Assembly (NCBI GenBank): GCA_034722955.1
Contig: JAYEOM010000025.1
Span: 1-22,255, forward strand
Reading direction: 5' to 3'
Length of the DNA stretch: 22,255 nucleotides
Origin: Campylobacterota bacterium
Lineage (GTDB): Bacteria; Campylobacterota; Campylobacteria; Campylobacterales; Sulfurovaceae
The notes beneath the pieces were generated by a model, which was not told the DNA's origin, ran no database searches, and saw nothing but the letters and a program-made list of their open reading frames with translations. Shown here one piece after another: positions 1 to 8,235 of the stretch (positions are counted from its first letter, which is position 1; the number at the start of each line of letters is the position of its first letter). The position numbers and the translations under genes were made by a program.

Positions 1-160
1 AGTAGTTATGGATAGTGATAGCCAAACTTTGAGCATAAAAGCACATCAACTCTTCAAAATATTTGTAATCTTCTGCTTCATTGAAAACAACTCTTTGTTC
101 TACACCTCTATTGATGATATGATAATATCCTGCTATCTCTATGCGTGGTTTTCTTGGCAT
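1..160 (-). CDS. REP-associated tyrosine transposase (RAYT/TnpA-REP, IS200-like Y1 HUH family), 5' part; runs off the window
   Basis: Manual translation from ATG at 160 gives MPRKPRIEIAGYYHIINRGVEQRVVFNEAEDYKYFEELMCFYAQSLAITIHNY..., the typical RAYT N-terminus (MPRxxR..YH(I/V)xNRG..IF...D). AAGGA RBS just upstream. The HUH motif would lie outside the window. Confidence 0.85.
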   Translation of the reverse strand, partial: MPRKPRIEIAGYYHIINRGVEQRVVFNEAEDYKYFEELMCFYAQSLAITIHNY

Positions 161-193
161 CGGCTAATCCTTTGTGAGGATTGTGGTGTAGTT

Positions 194-274
194 TAGATTA
201 TAGTAGCATTAGCATCACCTGACCCCTCTACCTATAGATTATAGTAGCATTGGCATCACCTGACCCCTCTACCT
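194..274. repeat. Tandem direct repeat, two 40-bp copies with a 41-bp period
   Basis: TAGATTATAGTAGCATT(A/G)GCATCACCTGACCCCTCTACCT at 194-233 and 235-274, one mismatch. Confidence 0.95.
197..202 (-). promoter_or_regulatory. Putative -10 box for the RAYT gene (duplicated at 238-243)
   Basis: TATAAT on the minus strand ~37 nt upstream of the RAYT ATG, present in both repeat copies. Confidence 0.45.
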
Positions 275-601
275 CAAGAGGTAGAGCAAAATCATAAAAT
301 TGCACTCTCTAGCATCGTAGTTTCAGAACTGCTTTATGGTGCAACTAAAAAAGATAATCCAAAACTGATGAGAGTTATTTCTGCTTTTGTAGATAACTTT
401 ATTATTTATGATTACTCTAAAATTTCAGCACAATCTTATGCCAATGTTCGTACAGATTTAGAGAAAAAAGGGAAGATTATAGAAGCTAATGATTTACTGA
501 TTGCTTCTCATGCTTTGAGCCTTGGTGCTGTTTTAGTTACAAATAACAGAAGAGAGTTTGAGCGAGTAGAGAAGTTGGTTTCAGAAGACTGGAGTCTTTA
601 A
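275..601 (+). pseudogene. vapC: VapC/PIN-domain toxin, N-terminally truncated
   Basis: The frame of ORF 368-601 extends upstream as QEVEQNHKIALSSIVVSELLYGA... and contains PIN motifs (SEL.YG, NDLLIASHA, LVTNN.REF, EDW). An in-frame TAG at 245-247 and no proper start mean the N-terminal LDTN catalytic motif is missing. No vapB seen. Confidence 0.85.
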
Positions 602-770: not shown

Positions 771-1376
771 TCACTTATTATTTTTCTTAGTAATTGCATC
801 TGCTATTTTGGACAATTCACCATTTTGTTTTTTTATCAATTCCACTTGACTGTCCATTAAGTTGATGAGTCTCTCTTGTCCTGAACCCTTCCCTTGGTAC
901 TTTCTCATAAGGAAAATAAATATGGCAAAAAAGATGATAATAGGCAACATCATACCTATAAGTTCACTTATAAATCCACTTTTTTCTTTGGGGTCTCTTT
1001 TGTTGCAAGGTTTATCCTGTTTGGCATCTAAAATACGAACTTTTTGTGAAGCATACAACTCTTTTTCATGTGCAGCTAAAGTTTGTACTTTGAATACAGC
1101 TTTCTCTTTAGGAGCGATTGTTGTTCCATATAAAAATTTATTAGCTACATCAATAACTTCTCCATTCTTATTAAAAAACTGAACTTCGATTGTGACATTT
1201 TCAAGTGAATACTCTCCATTATTTTGAACATGTCCTATTGTGAAAAGATAAGATGAATCAGAATAAGAGCGATAATTATATTTTGCATCTACAATCTCCC
1301 CACCATAACTATCTGCAAAAAGAGAACCCGACATAAAGAGTAAACAAAACAGTATAAATGTACGCAACATTTTCAT
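771..1376 (-). CDS. FxLYD-domain membrane protein (signal peptide, FxLYD Ig-like domain, FtsH-TM2-like helix, short coiled-coil tail)
   Basis: GGAGG RBS precedes ATG at 1376 (the ORF-track start at 1388 is a TTG overlapping the RBS). Signal peptide MKMLRTFILFCLLFMSGSLFA; G.V.N.G...LENVTIEVQFFNKNGEVID...IAPKEKAVF matches the FxLYD pattern; C-terminal hydrophobic helix followed by RKYQ. Confidence 0.8.
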   Translation of the reverse strand: MKMLRTFILFCLLFMSGSLFADSYGGEIVDAKYNYRSYSDSSYLFTIGHVQNNGEYSLENVTIEVQFFNKNGEVIDVANKFLYGTTIAPKEKAVFKVQTLAAHEKELYASQKVRILDAKQDKPCNKRDPKEKSGFISELIGMMLPIIIFFAIFIFLMRKYQGKGSGQERLINLMDSQVELIKKQNGELSKIADAITKKNNK

Positions 1377-1465
1377 AACTTCCTCCAATTAAATATATAT
1401 TATCAATTACAACACCTTAGCCAAAAAAACCCCAGCTAAAGCGAAGCTGTAGTAATCTTCCAGTT

Positions 1466-1486
1466 AGGCTACCCCAATGAAATAAA
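1466..1486. mobile_element. Solo terminal-inverted-repeat remnant of the MITE family at 21921-22095
   Basis: AGGCTACCCCAATGAAATAAA is 21/21 identical to the reverse complement of the outer part of the right TIR (22075-22095). Confidence 0.75.
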
Positions 1487-1633
1487 ACTACATAAAATAA
1501 TAACCAAACTCAATATAATCATAGATAAAATACCCTCAAACAATTAGAGTCAATCTCAACAGCAATATTGAGCATGGAAGGGAGAAGCAGTAGAGCAGTA
1601 GGGGTCAGTAACAACTACAACTAATAAGTTTGC

Positions 1634-1662
1634 TAGTTCCCACCATCTTGGTGGGAATTCAT
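1634..1662. repeat. REP-like palindrome
   Basis: TTCCCACCA-TCT-TGGTGGGAA (1637-1657), a perfect 9-bp stem in a GTTCCCAC...GTGGGAAT context, ~60 bp downstream of the ftsH stop. Confidence 0.55.
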
Positions 1663-1720
1663 ATGAGATATGCAATTGCAAAATGAGGTATGCTTCCTTA
1701 AAGTTAAAGGGGAAAATCCA

Positions 1721-3676
1721 TTAACTCTTTTTCTCTTTCTCTTCACTCTCAACTTTGTCTGTATGTGCTAAACGGCTAGGCATTCCCATCTTCTCTTCAT
1801 AGGCTTGTATGATACTGCGAACTTTTGTACCTTCGATCACTTCAGTCTCAAGAAGACTCTGTGTCATATCTTCGATAGCTCCATTATACTCTTTGAGAGT
1901 ATTTTTGACATGTATATAGTGCTCTTCAAGTTGACTTTTGACTTCATTGTCGATCTGCTCTGCCATCTTTTCACTATAGTCTTTTTGCGACATACCGCCA
2001 CCCAAGAAGCTATTTTGTGACTTTTCAAGAACCATCAATCCTGCTACATCACTCATACCATACATAGTGATCATATCTTTCAAGATAGCAGTTGCTCTCT
2101 GGAGATCATTGCCGGCACCTGTAGATATCTCTCCCAAGAAGACCTCTTCGGCAGCTCTACCACCCAGCAGTACATCGATCTCTGCTAAAAGCTCATGCTT
2201 CTGTTTGAGAAAACGGTTCTCTTCATCTGGGAGGTGAAGTGTGTAACCCAATGCACCAAGCCCACGAGGGATGATCGATACTTTGGTGACGCGTGTGGCA
2301 CCCTTGGTGAGCTCTGCCATGAGAGCATGACCACTCTCATGATATGAGACGATCTTCTTCTCTAGCTCATTGATCTTGCGATTTTTCTTCTCTAAACCGA
2401 CAAATGCTCTCTCTATAGACTCCATCATATCTGACTGATCTATCTCTTTTTTGTTTTGGCGACCTGCCAAAAGGGCTGCCTCATTGATGATATTGGCTAG
2501 ATCAGCTCCTGCAAGTCCAGCAGTTGATTTGGCTATGATAGCCATATCTACCTTGTCTGATAGCTTGACATCTGTACTGTGAACTTTCAAAATCTCCAGT
2601 CTACCCTCATAATCAGGCTTGTCTACTAGTACTTGACGGTCAAATCGACCGGCACGCAGAAGTGCTGCATCAAGAATCTCAGGTCTATTGGTAGCAGCCA
2701 ATACGATGACTGGTGTATCAGTTCCGAAGCCATCCATCTCAGCTAGAAGTTGATTGAGTGTCTGTTCTCTCTCATCATTTCCTCCCATATTGGCTCCTGA
2801 TGCACGGCTCTTACCGATAGCATCTATCTCATCGATAAATATAATAGCTGGTGCCTCTTTTTTGGCTTGTTCAAACAGATCTCTTACACGGCTCGCACCA
2901 ACACCGACAAACATCTCGATGAAGCTTGATCCGTTGACTGAGAAGAATGGTACTGAGGCTTCTCCTGCTACTGCTTTGGCAAGTAGTGTTTTGCCTGTAC
3001 CTGGAGGACCTACTAGAAGTACACCTTTTGGTATCTTCGCACCAAGCTCTATATACCTCTCTGGATATTTGAGAAAATCTACGATCTCCTTGACTTCATC
3101 TTTTGCCTCTTCTACCCCGGCTACATTTGAAAATCTTGTTTCAGGTTTCTCTGAGTTGATCAGTTTGCCAGCTTTTCCTACTCCAAGGATACCACCTCCC
3201 ATGCCTTTTTGCATGCGTTTTGCCAAAAATATCCAAATCGCAAAAAAGATCAATATCGGCAACATCATTCCGACCAGCTCTGAGAGCCAGCCAGCACCTA
3301 TCATCCCCTCATATTTGATATTTTTCTCTTCCAAGAGAGGTATCAAATCCTTATCGATAGCAGGGATATTCTGGGCTACATAACGAACTTTTTGTCCACT
3401 ATCGCTACTGATCGCTTCGATAGAAGATGAAGTTAGTTTGACTGTCGTTATCTTACCCTCTCTGATGAGTTTTTTGATATCAGAGTAGGCTACCTGTTTA
3501 GTTCTTGATACTTGTTTGTTATCATCGACCATACTGCCCAAACCTTCACCATCACCTACTACAGCTTTGAAGATGAGTATAATGATGATGGAAAAAAGTG
3601 CAAAGGCGAGCAGCGGATTGTTGTTGAAAAAATTGTTATTGTCGTTGTTGTTGTTCTGGTTGTTCTGGTTACTCAT
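1721..3676 (-). CDS. ftsH: ATP-dependent zinc metalloprotease FtsH
   Basis: Two N-terminal TM helices, Walker A GPPGTGKT, Walker [37 protein letters not shown] zinc motif HESGH. Likely start is ATG at 3676 after AAGGA, overlapping the prmA stop. Confidence 0.98.
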
Positions 3677-4499
3677 TGGTTTCCTTATGATAGACGAGAG
3701 TGATCCACTCATCTTTCTGTTTTTGTTCGATTAGTGTTAGCTCTGCAAACGAGGGGAGAACTAAAGGTAGTTTTGTATCTAAAATTCCCGAAAGTATCAA
3801 AGTGCCTCCCGATTTAGTTGCATTTTTTAAGTCAGATGCAATAAAACGAAGTACATCAGCTATGATATTGGCGATGACTATATCATATCCACCATTGGCT
3901 TTGTTGGCTGAACCCTCCCAGAGTTTGCTATAGTATACATCATTTAGGATGAAGTTCTCATCACAGCTTGTCACCGAGAGAGGATCAGTGTCACAGAGTT
4001 CAACCGTAGCTCCTAGTTTGGTGCAGGCGAGTCCGAGTATACCGCTACCGCAGCCTACATCCAAAATCCGTTCATGGCCTTTGACTATATCACCAATCAC
4101 CTCTAGGCATGTGTGTGTCGTAGCGTGATGCCCTGAGCCAAAAGCCAATGCTGGGTCTATTTTGATATTGATCTTATCCACTTTGGGTTCAAACCAACTG
4201 GGGTATATGTAAAACTCTCCCGCCTCTATAGGCTGTATAGAGTCTTGATACTGCTTGATCCAATCTCTGTTTTCCATCTCTTCAAGTAAGAAGTCTATCT
4301 CTATACTATTGCCCAAAGTAGCAATAAGTGCTTCAACGGACTCCTTGACACGAACAAGACTGTTTTCACTTCTGAGGATGATCTTATCCTTCCCAATCTC
4401 TAGTGTATCATCAAAAATATTGGCAACAAAATCTGCAATGAAGTCAACATATTGCTCTTCAAGTGATATGGTGAGTTCCTGATAAGTCTCTTGCATCAT
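3669..4499 (-). CDS. prmA: Ribosomal protein L11 methyltransferase
   Basis: [18 protein letters not shown] motif [23 protein letters not shown]; adjacent to ftsH as in other Campylobacterota. Confidence 0.95.
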
Positions 4500-5209: not shown

Positions 5210-5770
5210 TTATTCATCTCCTTTGAATAGGTTTTTTAGTTTTTGTTTTAATTCGTTGAAGTTTTGGTGTTCAAAAGCATAAGGCTTATCAGGTTTTGTC
5301 AAATTATGAAGTTCTGTTAAGATATTTTTATCAACAGCCTTAGAATTAAGTTCTGAACACTCTCTAAAGCCCTCATAACACTTTTTGATCTTATCATCTA
5401 CAGTAGAGAGTAGTAGGGATTCAAAAGAACCCTTTTTTGTAATTGGATCACAAGCGAGATAATAGTCGCTTATAGTTTCTATATTAAGTTCTTTTTGTAG
5501 TGTTTTAATCTTCTCAACTGTATTTTCTATGCCACATAGGGATTGATCATTCTTGGAGTCATCTACATCAACAACAAAAAGAACTTGTTGTACAAATCCA
5601 TCCTCGATTTTTTTTAATAAAATAGTATACTGCTCTATGTCCTTATTGACCAAAAAACTTTTACCACCTGTTGATATAAAACCTTCATCTATAAATGATA
5701 TTTCTAAAAAAGTGAGTAATTTTTTGATATTTTTAACATCAGTTACACCTTCACAAACTATCTTTACCAT
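5210..5770 (-). CDS. TOPRIM-like protein (DUF3226/DUF4276-like), partner of the upstream ATPase
   Basis: N-terminal IVCEGVTD and LFVVDVD match the TOPRIM E...DxD pattern; GSFESLL resembles the G.LE motif of OLD-type TOPRIMs; AT-rich; start overlaps the ATPase stop. Confidence 0.65.
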   Translation of the reverse strand: MVKIVCEGVTDVKNIKKLLTFLEISFIDEGFISTGGKSFLVNKDIEQYTILLKKIEDGFVQQVLFVVDVDDSKNDQSLCGIENTVEKIKTLQKELNIETISDYYLACDPITKKGSFESLLLSTVDDKIKKCYEGFRECSELNSKAVDKNILTELHNLTKPDKPYAFEHQNFNELKQKLKNLFKGDE

Positions 5771-6738
5771 CCTCTGACCTCGTGGTTTTGTTCTAGTTCA
5801 CTCAAAAACTGTTTTTGATTCCAAACAAGTGCCTTGAGTTTATTTTTTGGATTTCTTGCCATTGTAATCATGGCTATCTCCTCATCCTTCAACCTCTTAG
5901 CAACTCTAGCATAAGACTCTATACACTCTTTAGAGTGTGTAGTGGCGAAGAGTTGAACATTTTGTTGTTTTGAAATAGTGAGAATGATTTCCCATAGTTT
6001 ATCTAGGTTTGTGTAGTGGATACCGTTTTCGATTTCGTCTATAAAAACATAAGAATCACTACAGGCATATAGTGCTGATATAATACTTATGTAGTTTCTC
6101 AAACCATCACCGAATTCACTTAATCTTAGATAATCTTTCTTATCTTTTGTTTTACACTCTGGGCTATCATTAAATATTTTAAATTTTTCAATACTACTGT
6201 CAAAGCTATTAAGATACTTATTCAATAGTTCTTCTTTGTCTCGCCTTTGAACCTCTATATATATTTTTTTTAGATGTTTGTTTGTAAAGCCTTTTCCATC
6301 TACAAACAATATAGAAGTTGTCAGTTCTCTTCTGTAGGGGAAATCATCAACACTAATTATACTTTCATCTTTATTGATATTGAATTTGTACTCTTTTTTT
6401 CTACCATCTTGATCTATTAATTTATATTGAATATTATTAATGTTCGTTTTTACAGAATAATTTTTAATATTCTCGAAAAAAACTATATCATCTTTCAAGC
6501 TAAATAGCTTATTTATATATTCTAATTTTTCTCTGACATAGGTTACATACATCAAAGTAGTATATAGTGTATCTATATTTTTTGTATATATATTTGTGCA
6601 GCACGCCTCCATAAAAGCTGTCTTCCCTACATTATTTTTCCCACCAATCAAATTAACCCGACCAAATCCCTCTGCACTAAAATTTTCAAAACATTTGAAG
6701 TTTTTGATTTCTATATTTTTGATGAAATGGTCGTTCAT
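5764..6738 (-). CDS. ABC-type ATPase (AAA_15/AAA_21-like)
   Basis: IEIKNFKCF start, Walker A GKNNVGKT, signature-like FGDG, Walker B/D-loop VFIDEIENGIH, H-loop ATTHS; AAGGAG RBS. Confidence 0.85.
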   Translation of the reverse strand: MNDHFIKNIEIKNFKCFENFSAEGFGRVNLIGGKNNVGKTAFMEACCTNIYTKNIDTLYTTLMYVTYVREKLEYINKLFSLKDDIVFFENIKNYSVKTNINNIQYKLIDQDGRKKEYKFNINKDESIISVDDFPYRRELTTSILFVDGKGFTNKHLKKIYIEVQRRDKEELLNKYLNSFDSSIEKFKIFNDSPECKTKDKKDYLRLSEFGDGLRNYISIISALYACSDSYVFIDEIENGIHYTNLDKLWEIILTISKQQNVQLFATTHSKECIESYARVAKRLKDEEIAMITMARNPKNKLKALVWNQKQFLSELEQNHEVRGW

Positions 6739-7449: not shown

Positions 7450-8235
7450 TTACTTTTCCAGCTCTTTATCTATAGCATCTACAAAGACTTTATGATATCC
7501 AAGCTCGGGCAGTCTCTCTCGCATCGTTTGCAGATATCGATAGTAGTTCTCTATGGTGAGTGTACCTTTTAAGAGTTCGTATTTTAGATAGAGCCAGTAT
7601 GTGTTGAGTACATCAGATTGACAATATTCTCTGATCTTATCTATATCGCCTTGATAGAAGAGCTCAAAGACTTGATCGCCTGAGACATCATATTTGCCTG
7701 GGATGCCCGCCATAGTACAGAGAGTATCGAGCTTGAGATTGCGAACGGCACCGAAACTTCCTAGAGAATCGAGCAGATCAGTATGGAAATGTTCAGCATA
7801 TCGCTGTCTATAGTTTTCCCATTTACTTTTGTTGAGCTGGGGATTGCTCTGATCGAAGTAGGCAGGGATAGAGAGATTGTACTTCATCGCTCGTATCAGC
7901 AACATAGGCATATCAAAGCCTCGACCATTAAAAGAGACTAGTTTGGGATTTTTATCTTCGATGAAACTAAAAAAATGGCGAATGATCTTCTCCTCGTCAT
8001 CTGTCTCATATCCGAAATTTCCTACTTTGATGAAGTTGCCAAACTCATCAGCGATAACAGCTGATAGTGCTACGACACGATGATAAGCTAGAGGGAGAAA
8101 AGTCGTATTTTTACTCTCTGCATAGATCTCTTGTGCTTTGATGATAGCTTCGTACTCCTCTAGCCCTTCAACATCAAATGTTTTCTTGATAAGTCTATAA
8201 TCAGGGATTGTTTCGCAGTCAAAAATAGAGATCAT
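7450..8235 (-). CDS. DEDD 3'-5' exonuclease, PolB-exonuclease-like (WlaX/Cj1132c-like)
   Basis: ExoI FDCET, ExoII FNGRGFD, ExoIII YCQSD; divergent from waaC as in Campylobacter. Confidence 0.85.
   Translation of the reverse strand: MISIFDCETIPDYRLIKKTFDVEGLEEYEAIIKAQEIYAESKNTTFLPLAYHRVVALSAVIADEFGNFIKVGNFGYETDDEEKIIRHFFSFIEDKNPKLVSFNGRGFDMPMLLIRAMKYNLSIPAYFDQSNPQLNKSKWENYRQRYAEHFHTDLLDSLGSFGAVRNLKLDTLCTMAGIPGKYDVSGDQVFELFYQGDIDKIREYCQSDVLNTYWLYLKYELLKGTLTIENYYRYLQTMRERLPELGYHKVFVDAIDKELEK

Follow-up and report, generated by a model that had tools for sequence, protein, structure and literature searches.

The DNA analyzed here (the window) is a stretch of 22,255 nucleotides, positions 1–22,255 of contig JAYEOM010000025.1 from a Campylobacterota bacterium of the family Sulfurovaceae (assembly GCA_034722955.1). 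Next to ftsH on its minus strand lies a gene encoding a small single-pass membrane protein with an FxLYD domain. By its sequence, this protein belongs to a large unnamed family whose hallmark is a transmembrane (TM) helix that, together with about 8 flanking residues, copies the sequence of the second TM helix (TM2) of FtsH; in most members, the copied helix is of the E. coli type. In the Sulfurovum-type members, sequence comparison reveals that the helix core has been exchanged for the FtsH type of Sulfurovaceae, with both flanks remaining of the family type, so that the gene is a host-matched mosaic. We propose, with a probability of roughly 0.5, that the family helix packs against the FtsH membrane domain and that we are dealing with a binding partner or pseudo-subunit of FtsH.

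The helix of the small protein and TM2 of FtsH

The window derives from a 2.5-Mb genome (hereafter G000). The helix of the small protein, SELIGMMLPIIIFFAIFIFL (968–909), is identical to TM2 of the FtsH encoded in the same genome (3283–3224) at 17 of 20 positions. A preliminary description of this DNA had pointed out this match, and both the count and the open reading frames that it gave for the two genes (771–1388 and 1721–3712, minus strand) were reproduced. Over the 28 residues of the FtsH-TM2-like segment, GFISELIGMMLPIIIFFAIFIFLMRKYQ (894–977, minus strand; core 909–968), 19 are identical to the corresponding segment of FtsH (3209–3292, minus strand; core 3224–3283). BLASTP aligned the small protein with its own FtsH with 19 identities over 29 residues (E = 2e-11), and in a six-frame search of the whole genome (E ≤ 10), the sole match besides the gene itself was FtsH TM2 (E = 3.5e-8).

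The likeness is held at the level of protein rather than DNA. The helix and ftsH use the same codon for 4 of the 15 identical non-Met residues, where genome codon usage predicts 5.6 ± 1.8; the serine is encoded by AGT in the helix and by TCA in ftsH, and 40 of 60 nucleotides are identical. Because codon sharing is no higher than chance, the helix is not a recent DNA copy of ftsH. The preliminary description had reached the same conclusion from the 11 of 15 codons that differ, and its view that the match is maintained at the protein level also stands, since synonymous sites are random and the residues are nonetheless kept. An assembly artefact or chimera was considered and rejected: a gene of this architecture is also found in another genome (G001), where the protein is 80% identical, and on an independent metagenome contig (L037). 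Together with the wider family, these two loci rule out a match limited to a single genome.

A large family with an E. coli-type helix

An exhaustive phmmer search of 1.84 billion representative proteins returned 360 representative relatives at E ≤ 0.001, 99 at E ≤ 1e-10, and 3 at E ≤ 1e-30. Among the best 150 of the 360, most are 190–230 amino acids long and align end to end (for example, query residues 10–203 with residues 6–204 of P0006, E = 5.7e-42). A family alignment was built from 103 proteins of 185–235 amino acids (ids up to P0126), excluding fragments and multidomain proteins and including as P0001–P0004 the four close relatives (72–100% identity) found in a word-based search of 5.8 billion proteins. 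As established by sequence alignment, the family consists of proteins of about 200 amino acids with a leader, an FxLYD sandwich, a TM helix, a RKY.GK.SPQ motif, and a cytoplasmic helix. The sandwich, the TM2-like helix, the RKY.GK.SPQ motif, and the C-terminal helix are all present in the window protein and align over their full length with the other members, and the family profile scores 221.8 bits in the G000 genome over positions 1–209.

The consensus helix of the family, iswgPmllligvwiffmr, is identical to the corresponding part of E. coli FtsH, ISWFPMLLLIGVWIFFMR, at 17 of 18 positions. The preliminary description had predicted this kind of tracking for distant homologues, and the prediction was borne out both here and in the Sulfurovum members, which carry the Sulfurovaceae variant. 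When the family profile was run against 177,635 PDB sequences, FtsH was the only protein matched at E ≤ 0.001, with three distinct sequences (E. coli 7vhp/7wi4, E = 3.2e-9; T. maritima 7tdo, E = 2.3e-5); the other matches, at E values of 0.08–0.95, were MAX leucine zippers aligned to the tail. Run in six frames over the E. coli K-12 chromosome, the same profile found FtsH TM2 (E = 3.2e-10) and otherwise only YebO (E = 1.7e-4). The model of E. coli-type FtsH, NF008004, is matched by 57 of the 103 members at E ≤ 0.01 (best 1.5e-10), and the general FtsH model TIGR01241 by 55.

Outside the helix, the family does not resemble FtsH. Comparison of the family alignment with the N-termini of 41 Campylobacterota FtsH proteins by hhalign (E = 1e-6) confines the likeness to about 35 columns. 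A 67-column hhalign match to FtsH N-termini raised the possibility of wider homology, which was discarded because the match vanishes once the helix is removed. With the helix cut out, the remaining parts were unrelated to FtsH by hhalign (N-terminal parts, E = 0.21; C-terminal tails, E = 0.34 and 0.064), in agreement with the preliminary description of the rest of the protein as unlike FtsH.

A Pfam scan of the 103 members found no Pfam family that covers the protein, and 83 of them match FxLYD_dom (NF038353). Three members match PF13974 (YebO; E down to 0.0037, all scores below the Pfam cut-off), and one matches TIGR00739 (YajC, E = 0.0089). The two nearest ESM Atlas clusters are named 'hypothetical protein', and Pseudomonadota is the commonest label among the few members with a record. 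Of ten clusters looked up, two carried a name, in both cases 'hypothetical protein'. No relative of the canonical member P0011 turned up when 50,697 phage records and 72,556 plasmid records were searched by tblastn.

Domain architecture of the small protein

The AlphaFold2 model of the small protein (mean predicted local distance difference test score, pLDDT, 91.3) has four parts. The N-terminal hydrophobic leader, MKMLRTFILFCLLFMSGSLFA (1314–1376, minus strand), read from the sequence and helical at residues 2–13 of the model, is likely a Sec signal peptide that would be cleaved. It is followed by a periplasmic, FxLYD-like β-sandwich of six strands (1014–1301, minus strand; residues 24–119, pLDDT 94–98), a long helix (residues 132–159) that holds the hydrophobic TM span, and a cytoplasmic C-terminal helix (777–881, minus strand; residues 164–198). 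The family-specific juxtamembrane motif MRKYQGKGSGQ (876–908, minus strand), which corresponds to the family consensus RKY.GK.SPQ, adjoins the TM helix on the cytoplasmic side. The C-terminal helix is possibly a coiled coil, matches of the leucine-zipper type being weak, and it resembles the tail of E. coli YebO.

The sandwich scores 28.6 bits with NF038353 (cut-off 23) over residues 52–104, and 30.8 bits in the genome search. Foldseek with the model retrieved only weak, generic sandwiches (ApaG, DUF1425, TRAP subunits, and Wzt CBD; TM-score about 0.3 on query length). Among the FtsH domains, no Pfam match of the small protein to AAA, Peptidase_M41, or FtsH_ext (PF06480) was found, and TIGR01241 gives 30.6 bits against a cut-off of 600, over residues 96–191 only. 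The YajC family PF02699 aligns with the TM span alone and below cut-off (E = 0.17; 12.2 bits against 28.2). The small protein has no Pfam or NCBIfam match to an SPFH/band-7 domain, and the window protein has no match to PF13974. By its domain sequence, the protein belongs to the FxLYD domain class and is not an FtsH, YajC, or SPFH protein.

Host matching of the helix in the Sulfurovum clade

FtsH TM2 has lineage-specific variants, and tests of host matching are therefore possible. Over the 28-residue segment GFIS...KYQ, the FtsH proteins of E. coli and G000 share 8 residues. The Sulfurovum-type members P0001–P0005 are identical to G000 FtsH at 19, 17, 17, 11, and 16 of the 28 positions, as against 5–7 for E. 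coli FtsH and 7–10 for the family consensus. For the other 98 members, the mean number of identities is 6.1 with G000 FtsH (maximum 11), 11.1 with E. coli FtsH (maximum 19), and 13.1 with the consensus; 90 of these are closer to E. coli FtsH, 5 are ties, and 3 are closer to G000 FtsH.

The exchange is limited to the helix. The window protein shares with its nearest canonical relatives, P0006–P0008, 38–42 of 101 residues of the sandwich, 5–8 of 11 in the juxtamembrane motif, and 1–4 of 20 in the helix core; with distant members, it shares 5–9 of 11 in the motif and 1–6 of 20 in the core. For comparison, 9–15 of the 20 core residues are conserved between the canonical member P0011 and eight other members that are about as distant. 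When the consensus of the clade is compared with FtsH TM2, the average number of shared residues out of 28 falls from 18.2 within its own genus (n = 13) to 15.8 for the remaining genera of the family (n = 22) and to 13.0 for families of Campylobacterota other than its own (n = 6); one insertion column present in FGW-type FtsH sequences was dropped for this count. By hand count, the window helix agrees at 18 of 20 positions with an FtsH from the genus (L004). In G000, the helix and FtsH both have MM, and in G001 both have ML.

The core of TM2 in Sulfurovaceae FtsH is of the type SELI[GS]M.LPI..., and the FtsH proteins L041–L048, from six other Campylobacterota families and genus g7, have a TM2 with one extra residue and the FGW motif SELIFGWIIPIF.

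These comparisons bear on the possibility that the TM2-type helix comes from an ancient FtsH fragment and builds rings of the family's own, without touching FtsH. Such an autonomous oligomer would account for the conservation of the helix among members whose identity elsewhere is only about 25%, and a possible coiled coil in the cytoplasmic helix that follows the TM span would suit it. It would also fit an AlphaFold3 model of the FtsH hexamer published in 2026, in which a central hexameric TM2 is encircled by TM1 (PMC13039401). It leaves unexplained, however, the swap in Sulfurovum of 16–19 of 20 core residues (relative to P0006–P0008) to the host FtsH variant with the flanks kept, for which stretches of DNA with little similarity would have to have exchanged a segment by chance. 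Host matching thus argues against an autonomous ring, which we consider unlikely.

Constraint and age of the helix

In comparisons with two orthologues (three DNA sequences), the ratio of nonsynonymous to synonymous substitution rates (dN/dS) of the whole gene is 0.22–0.26. Across the three pairs, it is 0.07–0.14 for the helix and its flanks (34 codons) versus 0.26–0.35 for the sandwich, a comparison that the preliminary description had proposed. Mean pairwise identity across the family is 0.32 for the helix, 0.36 for the juxtamembrane motif, and 0.30 for the globular domain, which makes the helix and the motif no less conserved than the globular domain; of 99 sequences, 93 have Pro143 and 75 have Trp141. 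Because codon sharing between the helix and ftsH is at chance level and dS between orthologues is 0.37–0.69, the helix exchange predates the clade by a wide margin.

A neutral origin of the mosaic, in which the helix is a mere anchor that was replaced by a short stretch of ftsH through illegitimate recombination in the Sulfurovum ancestor and has drifted little since, would explain the sharp boundaries of the mosaic and the patchy occurrence of the family, with 2 of 401 genomes matching across the phylum and 2 of 14 in the genus, and mobile-element remnants do flank the gene in the window. The anchor, however, is FtsH-like throughout the family and not just in Sulfurovum; the helix with its flanks is the most constrained part of the protein; and 17 of 20 residues are kept even though synonymous sites are saturated. 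Family-wide conservation and low dN/dS thus argue against this explanation, which appears quite improbable.

Proposed role at the FtsH membrane domain

We hypothesize that the helix has been kept FtsH-like because it packs against the FtsH membrane domain. In the published AlphaFold3 model, six TM2 helices form the center of this domain (PMC13039401). The TM2-type helix of a single-pass protein, oriented as in FtsH, should pack at the place of a TM2, beside the FtsH membrane core or inside it, and the small protein would thereby attach to, or take a place in, the FtsH assembly. Its periplasmic domain and cytoplasmic helix would then be coupled to FtsH, and such a partner subunit might tune or poison the protease. 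A complex prediction with FtsH residues 1–160 and small-protein residues 18–199, run without controls, returned no verdict (score 0.00) and speaks neither for nor against binding. As a broader and more tentative proposal, the family may represent widespread bacterial pseudo-subunits in which a TM2 copy slots into the core of the FtsH hexamer and is re-matched to the host after horizontal transfer, the periplasmic sensor and the cytoplasmic coiled coil allowing control from outside the cytoplasm; YebO is perhaps a stripped-down relative.

Several observations weigh against packing on FtsH. The host FtsH is known for only two members, from G000 and G001, and tracking at a fine scale is mixed: by hand count, the G000 protein is identical to its own FtsH at 17 of 20 positions and to the G001 FtsH at 14, and the G001 protein to its own FtsH at 14 and to the G000 FtsH at 15. 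At the position of an invariant Trp of FtsH, the Sulfurovum members carry Phe, and low dN/dS in a TM helix can come from hydrophobicity alone. Across the family, 46 of the 103 members are without a match to NF008004 at E ≤ 0.01, and three of these (P0024, P0067, and P0077) are also without the conserved Pro. The position next to ftsH is unique to G000 among the loci seen. A weaker point is that no long protein carrying a comparable helix was recovered by word searches with the helices of the deviant members P0021 and P0030, made without a positive control; of the 6 and 3 long-protein candidates obtained, respectively, none scored.

FtsH initiates degradation at cytoplasmic tails that are at least about 20 residues long. 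The 45-residue cytoplasmic tail of the small protein fits this requirement, and the protein could in principle be a dedicated substrate of FtsH, with the helix as a recognition tag for regulated degradation. Recognition can take place within the membrane, one study reporting that it depends on the FtsH TM domain (PMC13039401). The same study, however, ties recognition to exposed polar residues, which the helix of the small protein lacks, and we regard a dedicated substrate as highly improbable.

FtsH also works with HflKC and YidC, and a shared third partner (a scaffold of the SPFH/HflKC type, YidC, or a lipid feature) might have shaped both FtsH TM2 and the family helix. Besides this cooperation, the presence of three SPFH-domain genes in G000 and a YajC helix in the genome that is somewhat alike (8–9 of 13 residues) are consistent with such a partner. 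None of the SPFH genes of G000 reaches the HflK cut-off, however (best 84 bits against 159), and at the three loci seen, the gene is not linked to any candidate partner; a third partner seems very unlikely.

The YajC TM helix, FLPLVILFAIFYFLIIRPQQK, resembles FtsH TM2 and the helix of the small protein at 8 and 9 of 13 core residues, respectively (hand count); the YajC loci are on G000 contig C38 at about 7900–8198, at L034:1491–1880, and at L035:1273–1533. This likeness may reflect chance or a shared helix type.

Gene models, genomic context, and distribution

The mechanically derived open reading frame of the small gene (771–1388, minus strand; 205 codons) begins at a TTG at 1388. The start is likely the ATG at 1376, 5 bases after GGAGGA, which yields a protein of 201 amino acids and a gene spanning 771–1376 on the minus strand (stop codon 771–773). 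The neighboring ftsH gene (1721–3712, minus strand) encodes an AAA+ zinc metalloprotease that scores 751 bits with TIGR01241 and in which Peptidase_M41, AAA, and FtsH_ext were found.

The spacer between the two genes is 330 bases long (1389–1720, minus strand). Within the spacer, a consensus scan located a terminator-like hairpin followed by a T run (1433–1449, minus strand), and upstream of the hairpin (1449–1433) there is a promoter-like site (1539–1512). The intervening hairpin suggests that transcription of the small gene does not simply continue from ftsH, and to judge from these signals, the promoter-like site and the hairpin could delimit a short transcript in the spacer. An Rfam scan of positions 600–1900 found nothing near a gathering score.

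At the left contig end (window positions 2–601) lie a truncated open reading frame without a Pfam match, which we take to be a fragment resembling REP-associated tyrosine transposases, and the C-terminal remnant of a PIN-domain gene (E = 2.4e-5). The DNA downstream of ftsH is rearranged relative to G001. In G001, purB and a dGTPase-like gene flank the small gene, and on the metagenome contig its neighbors are an acyltransferase gene and purB. The purB, acyltransferase, and dGTPase genes of G000 are together on another contig, without the small gene. Since the other loci are beside purB and the gene in G000 is beside the PIN remnant and the transposase-like fragment, the ftsH-adjacent position is derived. 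Thus, the location beside ftsH that the preliminary description had emphasized holds for the window genome but does not extend to the two related loci.

Further upstream on the minus strand (5210–6738), overlapping genes for an AAA_15/AAA_21 ATPase (324 amino acids) and a small DUF3226-like protein (186 amino acids) lie upstream of hisA. The pair is kept at the same place in G001, where it is followed by the end of hisH, and it looks like a defence or abortive-infection-type module inserted into the his cluster.

The family is nearly absent from Campylobacterota. When the family profile was run against 401 genomes of the phylum, 2 matched at E ≤ 1e-5, one being G000 and the other a frame with the sandwich only. 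Some match at E ≤ 0.01 was present in 43 of 61 genomes of the same order, and the gene itself was found only in G000 and G001, that is, in 2 of the 14 genomes of the genus; the other frames inspected were FtsH TM2 (open frames of about 615–700 amino acids) or, in G026 and G041, YajC. A scan of genome contigs matched only the FtsH of a Sulfurovum metagenome-assembled genome, and a metagenome scan gave one locus.

Comparison with known systems

The closest counterpart of the family helix is TM2 of FtsH itself (E. coli 7vhp/7wi4, T. maritima 7tdo, and Sulfurovaceae), with which it shares about 35 residues, the out-to-in orientation, the periplasmic boundary, the kinking Pro, the Trp, the hydrophobic core, and the basic cytoplasmic boundary. 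In contrast to FtsH, the small protein has no AAA+, M41, or FtsH_ext domain, and the sequences on both sides of the helix are unrelated to those of FtsH. The FxLYD domain model NF038353 is matched by the sandwich above its cut-off; it is a domain model of unknown function, however, and leaves the helix, the motif, and the tail uncovered. The name FxLYD was not found in the literature searched.

E. coli YebO (PF13974) is an uncharacterized protein of 95 amino acids whose TM span and cytoplasmic helix align to positions 153–209 of the family profile (E = 1.7e-4) but which is without the periplasmic domain, the Pro, and the SW.P boundary. Judging by this alignment, the helix-plus-tail module may have a minimal relative in YebO. 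Its gene is located at NC_000913.3 1908261–1908548 (L059:2262–2549), minus strand, and a literature search found no function of YebO and no link to FtsH.

Of the AAA+ proteases of E. coli, FtsH alone is essential, and it is the principal protease in the quality control of membrane proteins, in bacteria as well as in organelles. Its membrane domain is its least understood part, and structures resolve this domain poorly (PMC13039401, PMC8943139). A family that copies TM2 alone and is re-matched to a divergent host FtsH would mark TM2 as a specific interaction surface and offer a natural tool to probe the assembly and regulation of FtsH in the membrane. The canonical members carry an E. coli-type helix, which makes the idea directly testable in E. 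coli. With 360 representative clusters, this is a sizeable family without an assigned function. Literature searches found no description of a family that copies FtsH TM2, the broader FtsH searches having been judged by title and the start of the abstract.

Membrane-associated partners or modulators of FtsH include HflK/HflC, YccA, LapB, MgtR, phage lambda CIII, and SpoVM. These proteins tune FtsH from the membrane, which is the role that we propose for the small protein; they differ in that no Pfam or NCBIfam model of theirs is common with the window protein or is among the families most matched by the 103 members. To our knowledge, none of them copies FtsH's own helix. A parallel from the plant literature is provided by microProteins, truncated paralogues that keep the oligomerization interface only. 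As in microProteins, only the assembly-core piece of a larger oligomeric enzyme is kept here, whereas in the present family it is a TM helix, grafted between unrelated domains, and in bacteria.

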